In this document: in pieces, positions 1 through 8,972 of the stretch | How the letters are laid out: each line of letters begins with the position of its first letter | Position numbering within the stretch: the stretch's first letter is position 1 | IMG/VR virus record: IMGVR_UViG_3300013094_000025 | Location: 33,938 to 97,937 of that record | Source of the DNA: a virus | Strand: one strand, 5' to 3' | DNA length: 64,000 nt | Program-made: the position numbers and the translations under genes | The notes under the pieces: model-generated | What the model saw: only the letters and a program-made list of their open reading frames with translations | The model's database searches: none | What the model was told of the DNA's origin: nothing

Positions 1-195
1 TCTTTAGCAATTATTAGAGAATATTTAGATTATTCTAAAACTTATAAAGATAGATATACTTTAAATGTTGAAAAGCAAAATGACTATTGTAAAGGTCAAA
101 AGAAAAACGAAAAAACCTTTAAAGCTTTAGCAATTGATGTAGGGGAAGATAATGCTAAAAAATTTATTAACAATTTTATGTTTCCTGAGCTTTAA
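1..195 (+). CDS. C-terminal fragment of probable ferredoxin-dependent bilin reductase (PcyA/PcyX-like); 5' truncated by window
   Basis: Frame 1 is open from base 1 to TAA at 193-195: ...EKQNDYCKGQKKNEKTFKALAIDVGEDNAKKFINNFMFPEL*. This matches the PcyA-type C-terminus pattern Q-x-x-Y-C-x-x-Q-x-x-N-x-K-T...F...(L/M)-F-P. Not in ORF track. Confidence 0.6.
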   Translation, partial: SLAIIREYLDYSKTYKDRYTLNVEKQNDYCKGQKKNEKTFKALAIDVGEDNAKKFINNFMFPEL

Positions 196-397
196 TCTCT
201 TTAACAAACAATTGAATAATTTCAGCCCCTTTAAATTTTAAAAGACGTTCATTAGTTATATTAAAATGTTCAAGAGCTTTTTGTATACAGTCACTTTTAG
301 TAGCTGAGGCTGTTTTCCATAGATATACCGGACCCACTTTTATTACATGGACTATTCTTTTATGAATAAAATACTTGACATTTGTAGAATTTGACAT
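176..397 (-). CDS. small hypothetical protein (about 73 aa), probably late
   Basis: ORF track 176..430. The internal ATG at 397 follows a minus-strand TAAATA box (411-416), as in other late genes. Confidence 0.5.
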   Translation of the reverse strand: MSNSTNVKYFIHKRIVHVIKVGPVYLWKTASATKSDCIQKALEHFNITNERLLKFKGAEIIQLFVKEIKAQET

Positions 398-403
398 TAT
401 TAT
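375..403 (+). promoter_or_regulatory. sigma70-type early/middle promoter of the DNA-modification operon
   Basis: TTGACA (375-380) - 17 nt - TATTAT (398-403); ATG at 416. Confidence 0.7.
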
Positions 404-415
404 TGTACAATATTT

Positions 416-1267
416 ATGCTTATTAGCCACGAAACACCTATTAGTCTTCTAGATACCTCTAGAGGCTACAATGATTATGATTATTGTCTAGTACATTTAC
501 TACCTGAACAGTCGGAATATCTTAAATTTTATAAGGATTCCGTCGAAATGGGTAGACACGTATTACTTGATAATAGTATTTTTGAACTTGGAGAAGCTTA
601 TGATTCAAAAGAATTTGCTTATTGGATTAATGAATTGAAACCTACTGAGTTTATTATACCTGACGTTCTTGAAAGCACAGAAGGAACTATTGAAAGCTTT
701 AAGAAGTTTACTAGCGAATATAGAAACCTTCCGAGTAGAAGTATCGGTGTAGTTCAAGGTAAGACATATAAAGAAATTGTTGAATGTTATAATTTCTTGT
801 GCAAGTATGTAACTAAGATTGCTATTTCTTTTGATTATTCGTTTTATCTTAATGAATGGCCTACTTTAGAATCGTTTGAAAAAGAATTAGGAGTATTACC
901 TGAATGGATAAAGGGACTCGAATTTAATAAGTGGGTAAGATATTCCTTAGGTAGAGTAGCTTTACTTCATAGACTTAGTGCTAAGGATAACTATTTTGAT
1001 TATAGAAAGGGTCATCATCTACTAGGATGTGCTACCCCTTGGGAGTTTAAACTCTATAACAAGACGCCGTATAAGATGTGTATTGAATCAATAGATACTT
1101 CTAATCCTATTGTAGCAGCTATTCTTCATAAGAAGTATAATCCTGTTTATGGGCTACATGAAAAGTGGTCAGTAAAACTAGTTGACTATATTGGCGCTAA
1201 TATAACTCGAGAACAGCTCGAATTAGCTTTTTATAATACGTCCCTATTTAGAAAATTCTGTTCATGA
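416..1267 (+). CDS. dpdA: TGT-fold 7-deazaguanine transglycosylase (DpdA-like)
   Basis: TGT barrel motifs in order: LLDNSIFE (cf. DSGGF), IIPDV, GVVQG, HLLG, SIDTS (nucleophile Asp). No C-terminal CxCxxC Zn site. Operon with QueF. Confidence 0.75.
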   Translation: MLISHETPISLLDTSRGYNDYDYCLVHLLPEQSEYLKFYKDSVEMGRHVLLDNSIFELGEAYDSKEFAYWINELKPTEFIIPDVLESTEGTIESFKKFTSEYRNLPSRSIGVVQGKTYKEIVECYNFLCKYVTKIAISFDYSFYLNEWPTLESFEKELGVLPEWIKGLEFNKWVRYSLGRVALLHRLSAKDNYFDYRKGHHLLGCATPWEFKLYNKTPYKMCIESIDTSNPIVAAILHKKYNPVYGLHEKWSVKLVDYIGANITREQLELAFYNTSLFRKFCS

Positions 1268-1785
1268 GAAAATGGGTAACGTTTTTTAGTCAGACAGGTT
1301 CTGAAATTTATAAGCTTTCAAATAGACTCGGAAGAAATCCGGATATTATTGTAACAAATAGTACAAAGATTAGGCCTGAAGTTGTTGATAAGTTTGGAGA
1401 TAGTATTGTTTACGTAGGTCCAAAGCCTACAGTAGAAGATTATCTTAGGTTTATACCCGTTAATAGTTTAGTTACTCTTCACGGATGGCTTAGAATAGTG
1501 CCTGAAGAAGTATGTGATAGGTACGAGATTTATAATCTTCATCCAGCTAACCTGTTTCATAACCCTGAATTGAAAGGTAAAGATCCTCAAAAGATGGCCT
1601 ATAAACAGAAACTAATATTTTCCGGTAATACTATTCATCGCTGTACAGCCGAATTAGATTCCGGAGAGATACTTGAACATAGTTATACTTCTATTGAAGG
1701 CTTAACGTTAGATGAAATTATTGCAACATTACATGAAGATGCTACAAATTTGTGGTATAGATTTTTAAAAAAGCATTTACAATAA
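1264..1785 (+). CDS. PurN-like formyltransferase, probable preQ1 formyltransferase (DpdN-like)
   Basis: FFSQTGS, LHGWLRIVP, NLHPA, GNTIHRCTAELDSGEI are GAR-transformylase fold motifs. ATGA overlap with the dpdA-like gene. Confidence 0.8.
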   Translation: MRKWVTFFSQTGSEIYKLSNRLGRNPDIIVTNSTKIRPEVVDKFGDSIVYVGPKPTVEDYLRFIPVNSLVTLHGWLRIVPEEVCDRYEIYNLHPANLFHNPELKGKDPQKMAYKQKLIFSGNTIHRCTAELDSGEILEHSYTSIEGLTLDEIIATLHEDATNLWYRFLKKHLQ

Positions 1786-1789
1786 ACGA

Positions 1790-2347
1790 ATGAAAATTGC
1801 TATTTCAGGTGCTCATAGTCAAGGTAAAACTACTCTTGTAAAGTGGTTGCAGGATATAAATGTTTTAACTGATTATAAGTTTAGAACTTCTTTAACGAGA
1901 GGAATGCAGAAAGCGGGGTATAATATTAATGAAGATGGGGATGAGGTAACTCAATTAGCTATTATGGCTAAGCATTTTCAGCGACTTAGTGAAGTAGGGA
2001 ATATAATTTATGATCGTTGTGCTTTAGATGGTTATGCCTATTCTATGTCTTTAGTAAAAGATCTTAAAGTTTTAGATATTATTAGAGATATGTTTTTATT
2101 AATGGTGGATAGATATGATATTATTTTTTATGTTGAGCCGGAGTTAGATCTTATAGAAGATGGTCAAAGGACAGTAAATAAAGATTTTTTTGATAGTGTA
2201 GTGCAATCTTTTGATTGTATTATTAAATCATATGCAATACCTGTTGTAAGGCTTAGCGGTTCTGTAGAAGAACGTGCTAGACAATTCTTTGTAGCTTTAC
2301 AGGATAAAGAGGTAGAAAAACACAACAACGAATTTTACGAATTATGA
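1790..2347 (+). CDS. P-loop nucleoside/nucleotide monophosphate kinase (AAA_28/NadR/dNMP-kinase-like)
   Basis: N-terminal Walker A ISGAHSQGKTT, DRCALD motif, EDGQR lid. Confidence 0.75.
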   Translation: MKIAISGAHSQGKTTLVKWLQDINVLTDYKFRTSLTRGMQKAGYNINEDGDEVTQLAIMAKHFQRLSEVGNIIYDRCALDGYAYSMSLVKDLKVLDIIRDMFLLMVDRYDIIFYVEPELDLIEDGQRTVNKDFFDSVVQSFDCIIKSYAIPVVRLSGSVEERARQFFVALQDKEVEKHNNEFYEL

Positions 2348-3255
2348 GTACAACTAACATGAATGACATTGCATCGAAGTCTTTAGGATCTTCGGCTTCG
2401 TATGCAGTATATACCGATACGTTTGATCCTACGCTTCTTAACCCGATGCCTCGATCCCTAGCTCGAGATGATTGGGGTATTAAAGCTGGAAGCTTTGTAG
2501 GATTTGATACATGGCATTGTCATGAAGCTACATTCCTTCTTAATAGTGGAGTGCCCGTAGCAGGTACACTAAAGTATGTTTATTCTTGTGACTCTGAGTT
2601 TATGGTAGAGTCAAAGTCTGCTAAGCTTTATTGTAACTCGTTTGATATGTGCAAGATGGGTGAGAATTATTCTCAGGCAATTGCTAATTATGAGAATCAA
2701 ATTAAAACAGATCTCGAAAATATTCTTAAGACACCAGTATCAGTTAAGTTTTTCCGTTCAGGATCTGATAATAATGCTGTAGACTCTGTTCCTGATTATG
2801 TTGATCTTACAGATAAGATTCATTTTAGCACTGAGATTACTGATTATGCTTCTAAGGAGGAGCATTTAAAGTTTTATTCACTTGAAGATGGTAACGAAAT
2901 TGTAGAATGTAAATATTTTACTAATGCGTTGAGGTCTCGTTGCCGTCATACAAAGCAGAAAGATACAGGTACGGCTTATATTCATATTATTACAAAGGGA
3001 TGTGAAGTAAATCCGGTATCACTCTTTAAGCAAATTGTATCGTTACGAGAAGTTAACGAGTTCCATGAATTCTGTGCTGAAAAGCTTTATACAAGTATTA
3101 AGAGTCATCCAGCAGTAATTGATTGTGCTGTAACTCTTCTTTATGCTCGTCGAGGATCGCTTGATATTAACCCGACAAGGGCTAGTCGAGCTGATCTTCT
3201 TCCATCTGTTCTTATTAATTCAAATGTCTATACAAAAAAGGCAATGGGTCAATAA
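2344..3255 (+). CDS. queF: NADPH-dependent 7-cyano-7-deazaguanine reductase QueF (bimodular type)
   Basis: QueF motif ESKSAKLY; catalytic SRCRHTKQKD (Cys/Asp), NEFHE, YARRGSLDINP. Confidence 0.93.
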   Translation: MSTTNMNDIASKSLGSSASYAVYTDTFDPTLLNPMPRSLARDDWGIKAGSFVGFDTWHCHEATFLLNSGVPVAGTLKYVYSCDSEFMVESKSAKLYCNSFDMCKMGENYSQAIANYENQIKTDLENILKTPVSVKFFRSGSDNNAVDSVPDYVDLTDKIHFSTEITDYASKEEHLKFYSLEDGNEIVECKYFTNALRSRCRHTKQKDTGTAYIHIITKGCEVNPVSLFKQIVSLREVNEFHEFCAEKLYTSIKSHPAVIDCAVTLLYARRGSLDINPTRASRADLLPSVLINSNVYTKKAMGQ

Positions 3256-3302
3256 GATTCACACTAGCACAAAACACAAAACTAATATAATATATTAACG
3301 AT

Positions 3303-3686
3303 ATGAGCGAAACAACAAACAAAATCACAATCTTCTTTGACTCTGTAGGACGTACAATCCTCGGAGAACGAGTTGACGAAGCAACAACAGATACAGTTCT
3401 TTCTATTAAGAACCCAGCAGTTGTCCACATTATGCCTAACCAGCAGACAGGACAGCTTACTCTTCAGATCCTTCCTCTCTTCTTCAGAGAGTTCTTGGCT
3501 GATAAGACCGAAGCTACAACTTGGAAGTATAACCGTTCACTCATTACTGAGTGCAATGATATTGCTTTTGACTTTAAGCTTCAGGCTCAGTACCAGCAGA
3601 TCTTCAATCCTAGTCCAATTATCACTCCAGGAGGTGTCACACCAGCCGATAAGACTGACGTAGTCCGTCTTTTTGACGAAGAATAA
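3303..3686 (+). CDS. hypothetical protein (highly expressed codon style)
   Basis: 127 aa ORF with a TATAAT upstream and C-ending codon bias like gp32/gp23. Confidence 0.75.
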   Translation: MSETTNKITIFFDSVGRTILGERVDEATTDTVLSIKNPAVVHIMPNQQTGQLTLQILPLFFREFLADKTEATTWKYNRSLITECNDIAFDFKLQAQYQQIFNPSPIITPGGVTPADKTDVVRLFDEE

Positions 3687-3721
3687 TTGGATTTAATAGA
3701 AGCAGCATCTAATATTGTCGT

Positions 3722-4819
3722 ATGGCTAAAAACGAACTCTCTCATTTAAAAGATATTTTTAAATCTGTCGATGACTTAAACCCAGACGCTGCAGTATTAG
3801 ATGCTGCTACTCTATCAACAGCAGATGATTGGATTGATACAGGATCATATGCTTTAAACGCAATTATTTCAGGGTCTCTTTATAAGGGAATTCCTGGAGG
3901 TCGTATTACAGGTTTTGCCGGTCCTTCTATGGCTGGTAAGACTCTTATTATGAGTAAGATTATGGCTAATGCTCAAAAGAAAGGCTATATACCTGTTATT
4001 TGGGATTCTGAGGTAGCCGTAGATAAGAAGAGTGCTGAAGGCGCTGGTATGGATTCAGCTCGTGTTAAGTATTATCCGGTAGAGACAATTGAAGATTGTC
4101 GTAATCAAATGTCTGCTTTCCTTGATAATGTTATCAAAGCAGATAATCCTGATCTTAAGTTTATTGTTGCTATCGATTCCCTCGGTAATCTAGCAAGTGC
4201 TAAAGAGATTAAGGATGCTACAGCAGGTAAAGACTCTGCTGATGTCGGTCAACGCGCTAAGGCAATTAAGTCTATGATGCGCACACTTACCTATAAGGCT
4301 GCTAAGGCTAAGGTACCAATTTTGTTTAGTAACCATATTTATGAAGGAATGGAAATGTTTCCTACTCTTGTTAAAACTCAGAGTGGTGGTAAGGGGCCGA
4401 TTTATCTTGCTTCGGTTCTTGTACAACTTAGCACGAAGAACGAGAAAAGCAGTGACAATCCTAATGAACAATCTGTGGCTATTGCTCATAATATTTCAGG
4501 TGTTACGTTAGGAGCAATGACAGTAAAGAATCGATTTGTACCTTCTTATCTCAAGACTGAACTTTATTTAAACTTTAAGTCAGGGCTTGATAAGCATGCA
4601 GGTCTTTTTGAAATTGCTGAAGCCTTTAAGGTTATTGAAAAGCCAGGACGTACAGTAATGTATAAAGGTGAGAGTCTTGGTTACAGAAAAGATCTTGAAA
4701 AAGATCCTAAATTCTGGGAAAAGATTATGCCAGAGCTAGAGAAGGTTCTTCAAGAACAACTTTGCTATGGTACAGGGGATTCAGTTGATATTGAAGAAGA
4801 AGTCGATAATATCGAATAA
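3722..4819 (+). CDS. uvsX: RecA-like recombinase UvsX
   Basis: IDTGSYALNAIISGS, Walker A AGPSMAGKT, DSE, IDSLGNL, SGGKG, KNRF. Confidence 0.95.
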   Translation: MAKNELSHLKDIFKSVDDLNPDAAVLDAATLSTADDWIDTGSYALNAIISGSLYKGIPGGRITGFAGPSMAGKTLIMSKIMANAQKKGYIPVIWDSEVAVDKKSAEGAGMDSARVKYYPVETIEDCRNQMSAFLDNVIKADNPDLKFIVAIDSLGNLASAKEIKDATAGKDSADVGQRAKAIKSMMRTLTYKAAKAKVPILFSNHIYEGMEMFPTLVKTQSGGKGPIYLASVLVQLSTKNEKSSDNPNEQSVAIAHNISGVTLGAMTVKNRFVPSYLKTELYLNFKSGLDKHAGLFEIAEAFKVIEKPGRTVMYKGESLGYRKDLEKDPKFWEKIMPELEKVLQEQLCYGTGDSVDIEEEVDNIE

Positions 4820-7222: not shown

Positions 7223-8113
7223 ATGACATTAACTAAAAACCTATTCGCTGAAATTACAGCATCCCTATCTAATAAGAACGAAAATATCTATAAGGATATT
7301 CTGAAGTTTGAGGCTAACAAGACTTATCTCGTTCGTCTTGTACCTAATATTAACGAGCCAAAGAAGTCTATTTACAGCTATAAGCACCACAGCTGGAAGA
7401 GTCACTCTAACGGTCAGTTTATTACCTCACTCTGTCCTAGCACTTATGGGGAGAGCTGCCCGATTGATTCCTACGTTATGAAGACGTACAATACAGGTAC
7501 TGATGAAGAGAAGAAGAAGCTTGGAGAAATCTCTCGTAAGGAGAGTTGGATGGTTAACGCTTACGTTATTTCCGATCCTACTAACCCTGAGAATGAAGGT
7601 AAGGTTAAGGTCATTCGTTACGGTAAGGAGCTTGCTAAGATTATTGACAGTGCAATTACTGGCGATGATGCAGCTGAGTTCGGAGCAGCTAAGGTATTTG
7701 ACGTTGCTAATGGTAGCACTCTTCGTATTAAGTGCGAACCTCGCACAGGTAATACTGGTAATCGTATGTCAGTAACTTATTCATCTTCTAAGTTCTTGTC
7801 TCCTTCTAAGCTCGATATCCCTGAAGAGAAGGTTGTAAGTGTACATAAGGATATTCATGATCTTGCGAAGTTTAACAAGACCAAGACTACAACTGAGCTT
7901 CAGCAGTCCCTTGATCAGCACTTCCATTGCATTGAAGATGTAAATACAACAGAAGAGGTTGATGAAGATACTCTTCCAACACCAGTAGCTAAGATCCCTA
8001 CTAAGGATGCAGCTCTTGAGTCAATCTTTGAAGGTGTTACTGAGGCTCCTAAGCCTACACCTGCTGTAGATGATACAGATGCAAAACTTAAAGAACTACT
8101 TGCTGGACTCTAA
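7223..8113 (+). CDS. gp32: single-stranded DNA-binding protein (T4 gp32-like)
   Basis: VRLVP, HSW...CPSTYGESCPI, VNAYVISDPTNPENEGKV, YGKEL, acidic tail ending LKELLAGL. Confidence 0.92.
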   Translation: MTLTKNLFAEITASLSNKNENIYKDILKFEANKTYLVRLVPNINEPKKSIYSYKHHSWKSHSNGQFITSLCPSTYGESCPIDSYVMKTYNTGTDEEKKKLGEISRKESWMVNAYVISDPTNPENEGKVKVIRYGKELAKIIDSAITGDDAAEFGAAKVFDVANGSTLRIKCEPRTGNTGNRMSVTYSSSKFLSPSKLDIPEEKVVSVHKDIHDLAKFNKTKTTTELQQSLDQHFHCIEDVNTTEEVDEDTLPTPVAKIPTKDAALESIFEGVTEAPKPTPAVDDTDAKLKELLAGL

Positions 8114-8138
8114 AATATTAGCCACTATACTCAAATTT

Positions 8139-8972
8139 ATGCCTAGAATCAAAACTAACGCCGATATCCCCGATATTCAGAATACTGTTGACGGGTTCCC
8201 TAAGAAGTACATCCCTAAGGTTGGTACCCGTGATGCAACGCTTCCCGTTAAGATCATCCGTAAGGATGGCACTGTTAACGAAGGCTCAGGAAAGTTTAGT
8301 ATGTATACTGACCTTACATCTGAAAATAAAGGTACGAACATGAGCCGTTATCGTATCCTTATTGAAGAGGTCGTAGCAAAGGATGGTTACTTTGTTCACG
8401 AAGTTATTAAGGATCTTCTTCATGAGTGTAAGTCACGACTTAAGTCAGATAATGCTTATGTTAAGATTAAGTTTGACTACTTCCTTAAACGTCAAGCTCC
8501 TGTATCAAAGATTGAGTCTCATATGGATTACCGAGCTAATATGGAAGGTAAGCTTGTTGATGGTAAGGAGCGTTTGTACCTAACTGTACACGTCATGTAT
8601 GCTTCACTCTGTCCTTGCTCTAAGGAGATCAGTGATTACGGAGCTCATAATCAACGATCAGTAGCTGACGTTACCGTTGAGCTTGATGAGTCAAAGGGTA
8701 TTATGTGGATTGAAGAGATTATTGATATTGTAGAGAAGTGCTCTTCAGCTCCGATTATTAACGCTCTTAAGCGTGTTGACGAAGCTTATCAAACTGAGCT
8801 TATGTACGAGAATCCAGTCTTTGTTGAGGATATGGTTCGTAAGGTAGCTGTTGAACTTGATAAGGAGCTTGATAACCGTATTAAGGACTATTCAGTTGTC
8901 GTTAATCACTTTGAGTCAATTCATACAGCAGTAGCCGTTGCGGTTATTAATGCTGGTAGGGAGCTAAAGTAA
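8139..8972 (+). CDS. folE2: GTP cyclohydrolase IB (FolE2)
   Basis: DIQN, KGTNMSR, SLCPCSKEISDYGAHNQR, KRVDE, NPVFVEDMVR, ESIH. Start set to ATG 8139, after a TGGACT-16-TATACT promoter. Confidence 0.93.
   Translation: MPRIKTNADIPDIQNTVDGFPKKYIPKVGTRDATLPVKIIRKDGTVNEGSGKFSMYTDLTSENKGTNMSRYRILIEEVVAKDGYFVHEVIKDLLHECKSRLKSDNAYVKIKFDYFLKRQAPVSKIESHMDYRANMEGKLVDGKERLYLTVHVMYASLCPCSKEISDYGAHNQRSVADVTVELDESKGIMWIEEIIDIVEKCSSAPIINALKRVDEAYQTELMYENPVFVEDMVRKVAVELDKELDNRIKDYSVVVNHFESIHTAVAVAVINAGRELK

Follow-up and report, generated by a model that had tools for sequence, protein, structure and literature searches.

The DNA considered here (the window) is a stretch of 64,000 nucleotides (nt), positions 33938-97937 of a 97.9-kb IMG/VR virus record with a CheckV completeness of 46%, and it comes from an uncultured marine phage, a distant T4-like myovirus. 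Close to its start are four genes, all on the + strand, whose products are likely to be engaged in replacing guanine in the phage DNA by a 7-deazaguanine derivative: a transglycosylase of the DpdA3 family (416-1267), a PurN-like formyltransferase termed DpdN (1264-1785), a small P-loop kinase, for which the name Kin1 is used below (1790-2347), and the reductase QueF (2344-3255). The first two genes overlap by ATGA at 1264-1267 and the last two at 2344-2347, and 4 nt, 1786-1789, separate the second gene from the third, as read directly from the sequence. A preliminary description of this DNA had recognized the close packing, placed a single TTGACA-17-TATTAT promoter in front of it, and taken the products for a Zn-less protein of TGT fold, a PurN-like formyltransferase, a P-loop kinase and a QueF with intact Cys/Asp/His-Glu; all of that stands up to the closer inspection described below. 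A blastn search of phage records with the operon as query found nothing. The four-gene order is met again in more than 50 distinct IMG/VR loci, and so the arrangement is not there by chance.

The sigma-70-like promoter (375-403, + strand) is 12 nt upstream of the dpdA3 start and, as an 11/12 match, is the best promoter-like sequence within positions 1-4000; such sites are no more numerous there (12) than in shuffled sequence (16.6 expected), the DNA being rich in AT. Both hexamers are kept in five close relatives with the spacer between them varying, and in more distant relatives the promoter is absent and dpdA3 comes directly after the upstream open reading frame (ORF). No Shine-Dalgarno sequence is visible ahead of the dpdA3 start. 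On the opposite strand an ORF of 84 amino acids (aa) with a GTG start and no family match (176-430, - strand) overlaps the promoter and the first dpdA3 codons. Positions 330-360 are conserved among close relatives, so that the ORF may be a real small gene or the region a regulatory one.

The product of the first gene (283 aa) has no Pfam match. It matches phrog_19058 (E 4e-47), and tblastn pairs it with DpdA3 of Flavobacterium phage immuto_2-6A (gp65; 42.4% identity over 99% of the query, E 6e-55) and of Campylobacter phage CP220 (gp056; 42.9% identity, E 2e-42). An AlphaFold (AF2) model built from 41 homologues has a predicted local distance difference test (pLDDT) score of 94.7 and matches TGTs with a Foldseek probability of 1.00, the VIA Z scores being 16.9 for ArcTGT (1iq8), 16.3 for DpdA (7ui4) and 16.2 for bacterial TGT over ~227 residues each; a profile search against Protein Data Bank sequences returned nothing meaningful. 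Homology and model together place the protein in the DpdA3 family, as a predicted TGT-fold TIM barrel that lacks the zinc subdomain: there is no CxCxxC...H zinc motif in the ORF, and the protein, which stops 56 residues past the putative nucleophile, is free of any Cys/His zinc motif. D52, D83, G115, G204 and D227 are invariant in the 41 homologues, and the motifs LLDNS, IPDV, VVQG, HLLG..P and IDTSNP follow one another in the order of LTDSG (D89), IFDE (D143), IIQG, YLMG..P and FDCVMP (D264) in E. coli TGT. Alignment of the two by hhalign anchors only the QG motif, the other residues being mapped by motif order as read from the sequences, and we take the roles of D89, D143, QG, LMG and the nucleophile D264 to be those of the TGT literature. 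Public data hold ~4,800 homologues of the window DpdA3. Also met with are three fusions of DpdA3 with QueF (531-568 aa; among P0241, P0242, P0244 and P0243) and one protein of 586 aa in which an unannotated 318-aa N-terminal domain precedes DpdA3.

DpdN (173 aa) matches PF00551 (Formyl_trans_N, 35.1 bits) and is 48.6% identical to DpdN of immuto (gp67). When it is aligned with E. coli PurN the catalytic Asn106, His108 and Asp144 are invariant, as is the Gly11-Ser12 loop, which in PurN presumably binds the 5'-phosphate of glycinamide ribonucleotide. The fourth product (303 aa) has both halves of a bimodular QueF, PF14819 (QueF_N) and PF14489 (QueF), and is predicted to reduce preQ0 to preQ1; equivalents of Cys190, Asp197, His229 and Glu230 of E. 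coli QueF are kept together with the NADPH motif ESKSxKLY. With 170.7 bits on TIGR03138, whose equivalog cut-off is 293, it is best described from its sequence as a diverged member of the bimodular type. The basic residues around the catalytic Cys (CRHTKQKD, against CLITHQPD in E. coli) were considered as a phosphate-binding adaptation, a notion rejected as they are not shared by immuto QueF.

Kin1 (185 aa) is a small AAA_28 protein (PF13521, 49.4 bits against a gathering score of 27; phrog_2107) with 34% identity to gp68 of immuto and 35% to gp057 of CP220. Its model (pLDDT 89.4) resembles most closely the ribosylnicotinamide-kinase (RNK) domain of NadR (8x7f; Z 17.9, root-mean-square deviation (rmsd) 2.8 over 170 residues), followed by Tmk and dNK at Z 15-16. 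Its homologues in immuto and CP220 are annotated as thymidylate kinases, an identity that finds no support for Kin1: TIGR00041 yields 16.8 bits where the cut-off is 83.25, and the resemblance to the Tmk fold is no better than that to NadR or dNK. On the NadR equivalog NF005988 the score is 15.5 with a cut-off of 201, no NMNAT gene adjoins Kin1, and it has no similarity to guanylate kinase. Because the equivalog models for dTMP kinase and NadR failed by such wide margins, Kin1 is to be regarded as a distinct nucleoside or nucleotide kinase, with a substrate that is not readable from sequence. Invariant in the family are R37, Q55, D75-R76, D80, Y84, D124, R127 and R162, with N47-E48 and E118 nearly so. 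Prediction of a DpdA3-Kin1 complex returned a score of 0.00, which is no verdict and is used here neither for nor against binding.

A phage already described in the literature, immuto_2-6A, possesses the entire module with its kinase, and in it the same four genes stand in the same order, an extra 50-aa ORF after dpdA3 being peculiar to immuto; identities are 42% for DpdA3, 49% for DpdN, 34% for the kinase and 38% for QueF. In the DNA of immuto dG is absent and fdPreQ1 amounts to 345,000 per million nucleotides, i.e. 100% fdPreQ1 by liquid chromatography-mass spectrometry (LC-MS) (PMC10516641, 2023). In all probability, then, the window module is an added member of the known DpdA3/DpdN/QueF system of fdPreQ1 type, and guanine in the source phage DNA is most likely replaced by 7-(formylamino)methyl-7-deazaguanine (fdPreQ1), as the preliminary description had proposed. 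Since the gene order is that of the LC-MS-proven immuto, and neither DpdN nor QueF has lost its catalytic residues, this prediction is as good as homology allows. In both phages the preQ0 genes are phage-encoded. The backbones differ: the source phage is T4-like with a family-B polymerase, UvsX, gp41 and gp32, and immuto has a family-A polymerase. So do some details of the pathway, with FolE2 in the source phage and FolE in immuto, an NTP pyrophosphohydrolase (PRA-PH-type NTP-PPase) no more than two genes from dpdA3 in immuto and none near it here, and a phosphoribosyltransferase in the immuto cluster. A second kinase beside QueD and QueE, and the spread of the pathway genes over more than 35 kb, also set the source phage apart.

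The remaining pathway genes are at some distance. FolE2, a predicted GTP cyclohydrolase I for the first step of 7-deazaguanine synthesis (8070-8972, + strand; PF02649, E 3.9e-71), comes directly after gp32 (7223-8113; PF08804). The genes for QueD, QueE and Kin2, a second AAA_28 kinase of 234 aa, are packed closely together on the - strand ~30 kb upstream of the operon (L004:3666-5509, which is record C1:3666-5509). FolE of type 1, MazG and HD were not found on the fragment. Of queC, queD and queE, which the preliminary description had proposed to look for elsewhere in the genome, queD and queE are present, and queC does not occur on this 46%-complete fragment. QueC, DpdA3 and Kin1 are present in all five near-complete relatives, and one of these, the complete 218-kb G006, is collinear with the fragment at ~70% nucleotide identity and holds both clusters and QueC, on which grounds the full preQ1 pathway is very likely complete in the source phage. 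The QueD-QueE-Kin2 trio also occurs in G006. Kin2 has 24% identity to immuto gp68. Four of the five near-complete relatives likewise have another AAA_28 kinase of its type, in at least three of them within ~7 kb of preQ0 genes. Three genes from Kin2 there is a 517-aa protein (L004:5946-7499, - strand) whose N-half weakly resembles a Pol-beta-type nucleotidyltransferase and whose C-half an adenylyl/cytidylyltransferase (NMNAT-like); together with an RNK-like kinase it could constitute a split NadR-like pair for NAD salvage.

How general is the company of DpdA3 and the kinase? A DpdA3-seeded search of IMG/VR gave more than 579 loci, of which the best 80 were kept together with 25 from a first pass; after removal of duplicate proteins, 102 distinct DpdA3 genes had at least 2 kb of downstream sequence. 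A Kin1-family gene lies within 2 kb downstream on the same strand in 98 of these, three more have a kinase 6.9 kb away, and one (L029) has none in its short flank. The loci are of three architectures, with DpdN, kinase and QueF in 59, kinase and QueF in 24, and the kinase alone in 15, and as it is present with or without DpdN and QueF the kinase tracks DpdA3 and not the side-chain chemistry. In the reverse direction, a kinase-seeded search found DpdA3 directly upstream of 91 of 97 kinases. Both genes of a pair are read from one strand, and often the stop codon of one overlaps the start codon of the other. In a set of 50,697 phage records, DpdA3 of this type occurs in 18, and these are also the 18 in which the best Kin1 match has E<=4e-18; weaker matches (28-29% identity, E 3e-8) occur in two further Campylobacter records and at second sites in other Campylobacter phages, and at E<=1e-3 there are none in phages outside Campylobacter, Flavobacterium and Streptomyces hosts. 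Streptomyces phages have kinase homologues (22-26% identity) located in replication modules that lack deazaguanine genes, and their distance is such that they have no bearing on the linkage. The association of the kinase with dpd genes, to which the preliminary description had attached weight, is thus strongly positive in both directions, and this near-obligate linkage supports a functional link between kinase and DpdA3. It is not absolute, however. Three small phages of 24-29 kb (L159, L163 and L165; two 95-99% complete, one 82%) have a Kin1-family kinase (hidden Markov model (HMM) E ~1e-53) and no DpdA3, TGT or QueC anywhere in their records, and so the kinase is not exclusive to this pathway. 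In these three it adjoins a GNAT-like ORF and terminase.

Kinases of other families can occupy the same place. In Cellulophaga phage phiST, whose DNA has dDG, a Zn-less DpdA3-type enzyme (CGPG_00065) too diverged for tblastn with the window protein is overlapped by a small PF13238 P-loop kinase (CGPG_00066) non-orthologous to Kin1, within a FolE-QueE-QueD cluster; the decarboxylase DpdL stands in place of QueF and DpdN, and MazG is two genes from DpdA3. Chryseobacterium phage MA9V-3 (PV245944.1 41921-43161) has a DpdA3 of phiST type (42% identity) adjoining a P-loop kinase of phiST type (32%), both annotated as hypothetical. In Bacillus phage BSTP12 (L191:4339-5687, genes 039 and 038) a DpdA3-like gene (HMM E 5e-23) shares an overlap with that of a Walker-A protein of 187 aa and is situated between a Gat-QueC/QueD/FolE cluster and DNA polymerase I. 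That unrelated kinases displace Kin1 beside DpdA3 argues that the activity matters, and not mere inherited gene order. Judged by gene content, Bacillus phages of BSTP12 type may carry an unreported 7-deazaguanine modification of their DNA. The DpdA3-like gene of BSTP12 is annotated as 'NadR', and in sister records as 'polynucleotide kinase' or 'integrase'. In CP220, a Campylobacter Firehammervirus with dADG as the end product, DpdA3 (gp056) and the kinase (gp057) are adjacent on the same strand (43% and 35% identity) in the absence of DpdN and QueF, and an HD phosphohydrolase-AAA_33 kinase fusion (gp055), a counterpart of which was not found in the source phage, is directly upstream of DpdA3. 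Replacement of G in CP220 is reported to be complete (PMC10516641).

What might a kinase do here? The preliminary description had suggested exchange at the nucleotide level and phosphorylation towards a modified dNTP, or else salvage of the latter. The tie between kinase and DpdA3 on which that relied is now well supported (98/102), and the step from the tie to exchange at the nucleotide level is still inferential; to the proposal of exchange on a nucleoside or nucleotide with subsequent phosphorylation we would give an even chance. In such a scheme FolE2, QueD, QueE and QueC would convert GTP to preQ0, which QueF would reduce to preQ1. DpdA3, using the TGT mechanism with an Asp nucleophile and a covalent deoxyribosyl-enzyme intermediate, would swap guanine for the deazaguanine, its substrate being the free deoxyguanosine nucleoside or nucleotide and not finished DNA. 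DpdN would formylate the aminomethyl group, probably on a 5'-phosphorylated form, and Kin1, possibly with Kin2, would phosphorylate the product towards the diphosphate, leaving host nucleoside diphosphate kinase to make the triphosphate and the phage family-B polymerase to incorporate it. The acceptor of DpdA3, the order of formylation and exchange and the substrates of the kinases are the parts that we infer. That DpdA3 would be the first enzyme of the TGT superfamily to act on a free deoxynucleoside or deoxynucleotide, and with one or two AAA_28 kinases would form a pre-replicative route to 7-deazaguanine dNTPs, is a claim to be held slightly less firmly, at a little under an even chance.

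Complete base replacement in phages is made pre-replicatively, as with hmC in T4, Z in S-2L and U in PBS2. The T4 pathway (dCMP hydroxymethylase, the gp1 dNMP kinase and dCTPase) and that of S-2L (PurZ, DatZ and MazZ) offer a functional analogy only: their enzymes are not homologous to those of the module, and a canonical-dNTP-clearing enzyme was not found in the source clade, but they share with it a logic in which one enzyme alters the base, a kinase is dedicated to the pathway and replacement is complete. Several features fit the nucleotide route. Complete replacement is reached by DpdA3 phages only, and phages with DpdA1, DpdA2 or DpdA4 have partial replacement only (PMC10516641). Bacterial DpdA/DpdB and phage DpdA1/DpdA2, systems that insert preQ0 into DNA and in which replacement is partial and sequence-specific, share the TGT barrel with DpdA3 (7ui4: Z 16.3, rmsd 3.1 over 227 residues, 14% identity), but 7ui4 has 413 residues as against the 283 of the source DpdA3, which is without the zinc motif and in that sense minimal. 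In all three experimentally 100%-replaced groups an NTP phosphohydrolase is encoded within two genes of DpdA3: MazG in phiST, the PRA-PH-type NTP-PPase in immuto and the HD-kinase fusion in CP220. The second kinase of the source phage fits as well, and so does the PurN loop of DpdN if its role is as we take it to be. In E. coli, expression of DpdA3 by itself left DNA unmodified, and cells infected with CP220 contained free ADG nucleoside (PMC10516641), both of which are in keeping with exchange ahead of replication. For Campylobacter phages a route through modified dGTP has been put forward in the past (PMC6884629).

There is no shortage of points that pull the other way. We know of no enzyme of the TGT superfamily that acts on free nucleotides, since those that have been characterized (bacterial and eukaryal TGT, ArcTGT, DpdA) all have polynucleotide substrates. 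Fold comparison is blind to substrate, with ArcTGT, DpdA and TGT tied at Z 16-17, and for Kin1 neither fold, profile, Foldseek nor VIA indicates whether nucleosides or nucleoside monophosphates are the class of substrate, or which base, NadR-RNK, Tmk and dNK being within ~2 Z units of each other. Fusions of DpdA3 with the kinase were looked for and none was found, the fusion partners that do occur being QueF and the domain of no annotation. A search for MazG, PRA-PH, HD, MazG-like and dUTPase_2 found none in the fragment or in the complete relative G006, and the dGTP-exclusion step is accordingly missing for this clade. L029 has DpdA3, DpdN and QueF and no kinase in its short available flank. 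The lack of QueC on the fragment and the three small phages with a kinase and no DpdA3 belong on the same side of the balance.

The published model is the foremost competitor. In it DpdA3 works on DNA after replication, as a transglycosylase by which each G of the duplex is exchanged for preQ1, DpdN formylates either the free base before insertion or the DNA afterwards, and the kinase would be an accessory in precursor supply, for instance in re-phosphorylating GMP or dGMP formed from the guanine released in large amount, whereby FolE2 would stay supplied with GTP. The TGT/DpdA fold and catalytic Asp motifs of DpdA3, with known relatives that all act on polynucleotides, speak for it, as do the DpdA3-QueF fusions, which fit a free base being handed to a transglycosylase, the phosphoribosyltransferase of the immuto cluster, which could salvage released guanine, and the failure to find a dGTP-clearing enzyme of the five families sought in the source clade. 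Complete replacement without residual dG is unusual for post-replicative systems, though, and for a salvage kinase there would be no need to adjoin dpdA3 in 98 of 102 loci or to give way to unrelated P-loop kinases in the phiST-type and Bacillus-phage clusters. Kin1 does not look the part either, being far under the dTMP-kinase cut-off and devoid of guanylate kinase similarity, and its matches among the 50,697 phage records are confined to phages of Campylobacter, Flavobacterium and Streptomyces hosts; the replacement achieved with DpdA1/2/4 is partial (PMC10516641). The inactivity of DpdA3 alone in E. coli is a further difficulty for direct action on DNA (PMC10516641). The authors of that study concluded that all 7-deazaguanine modifications are post-replicative, as every such phage has DpdA (PMC10516641), and on balance their model seems to us a substantial possibility for the window module, less probable than the nucleotide route.

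Could the P-loop protein be not a small-molecule kinase at all, but an NTPase partner of DpdA3 with a role like that of bacterial DpdB? Bacterial DpdA reportedly needs the ATPase DpdB for insertion of preQ0 into DNA, and the tight same-strand adjacency, often with overlapping stop and start codons, would suit such a partnership. It is nonetheless improbable: residues of nucleoside and nucleotide kinases are kept beyond the P-loop, the nearest folds are NadR-RNK, Tmk and dNK and not the ParB-like DpdB, the paralogue Kin2 sits away from DpdA3, and the 24-29 kb phages have the kinase without DpdA3, TGT or QueC. More improbable still is that no DNA is modified, the module instead boosting queuosine-type tRNA modification or making a soluble 7-deazapurine metabolite, with the kinase a NadR-like nicotinamide riboside kinase that helps to supply QueF with NAD(P)H. 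For this one can cite the NadR RNK as top fold match of Kin1, the Joint Genome Institute (JGI) name 'nicotinamide riboside kinase' for its relatives, and the 517-aa protein with its weak NMNAT-like domain three genes from Kin2. The NadR equivalog score (15.5, cut-off 201) tells against it, as do the kinases beside DpdA3 where there is no QueF, in the 15 kinase-only loci and CP220, and virion DNA is fully substituted in immuto, CP220 and phiST, which have the orthologous modules (PMC10516641). A small remainder of probability is assigned to none of these explanations.

That marine T4-like phages of a large, uncultured clade have the module implies that complete replacement of G is widespread in the ocean, which bears on evasion of restriction and CRISPR, on sequencing bias and on host glycosylase defences against such bases. 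The pairing of DpdA3 and kinase offers a concrete test of whether exchange is post-replicative, on DNA, or is transglycosylation at the nucleotide level, and it challenges the published general statement on post-replicative insertion in a way that is testable in three cultured phages. If exchange is at the nucleotide level, these enzymes could be used to make 7-substituted 7-deaza-dGTPs, compounds of value as reagents. The searchable papers on these systems make no mention of the kinase, the word 'kinase' having 0 occurrences in PMC10516641, and neither a characterized kinase nor a pre-replicative 7-deazaguanine route was found in open-licence papers and preprints. What the present analysis adds is the non-orthologous kinases of the phiST-type and Bacillus phages, the distribution of Kin2, the small phages with the kinase only, the DpdA3-QueF fusions and the negative dGTPase search.

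The surroundings of the operon show the distant T4-like backbone. Downstream of it come UvsX, only ~34% identical to cyanophage UvsX, and a DnaB-like helicase, and then gp32, FolE2, terminase and sheath. Upstream are SbcC, a block of glycosyltransferases, the family-B polymerase and a heme oxygenase/bilin reductase pair. The glycosyltransferase block (L005:680-6328) consists of sugar-nucleotide epimerase and glycosyltransferase-like genes around the SbcC-like gene, upstream of the polymerase. The heme oxygenase and ferredoxin-dependent bilin reductase pair is directly upstream of the operon (window 1-195, L005:8944-10130), in a phage with a UvsX thus distant from that of cyanophages.

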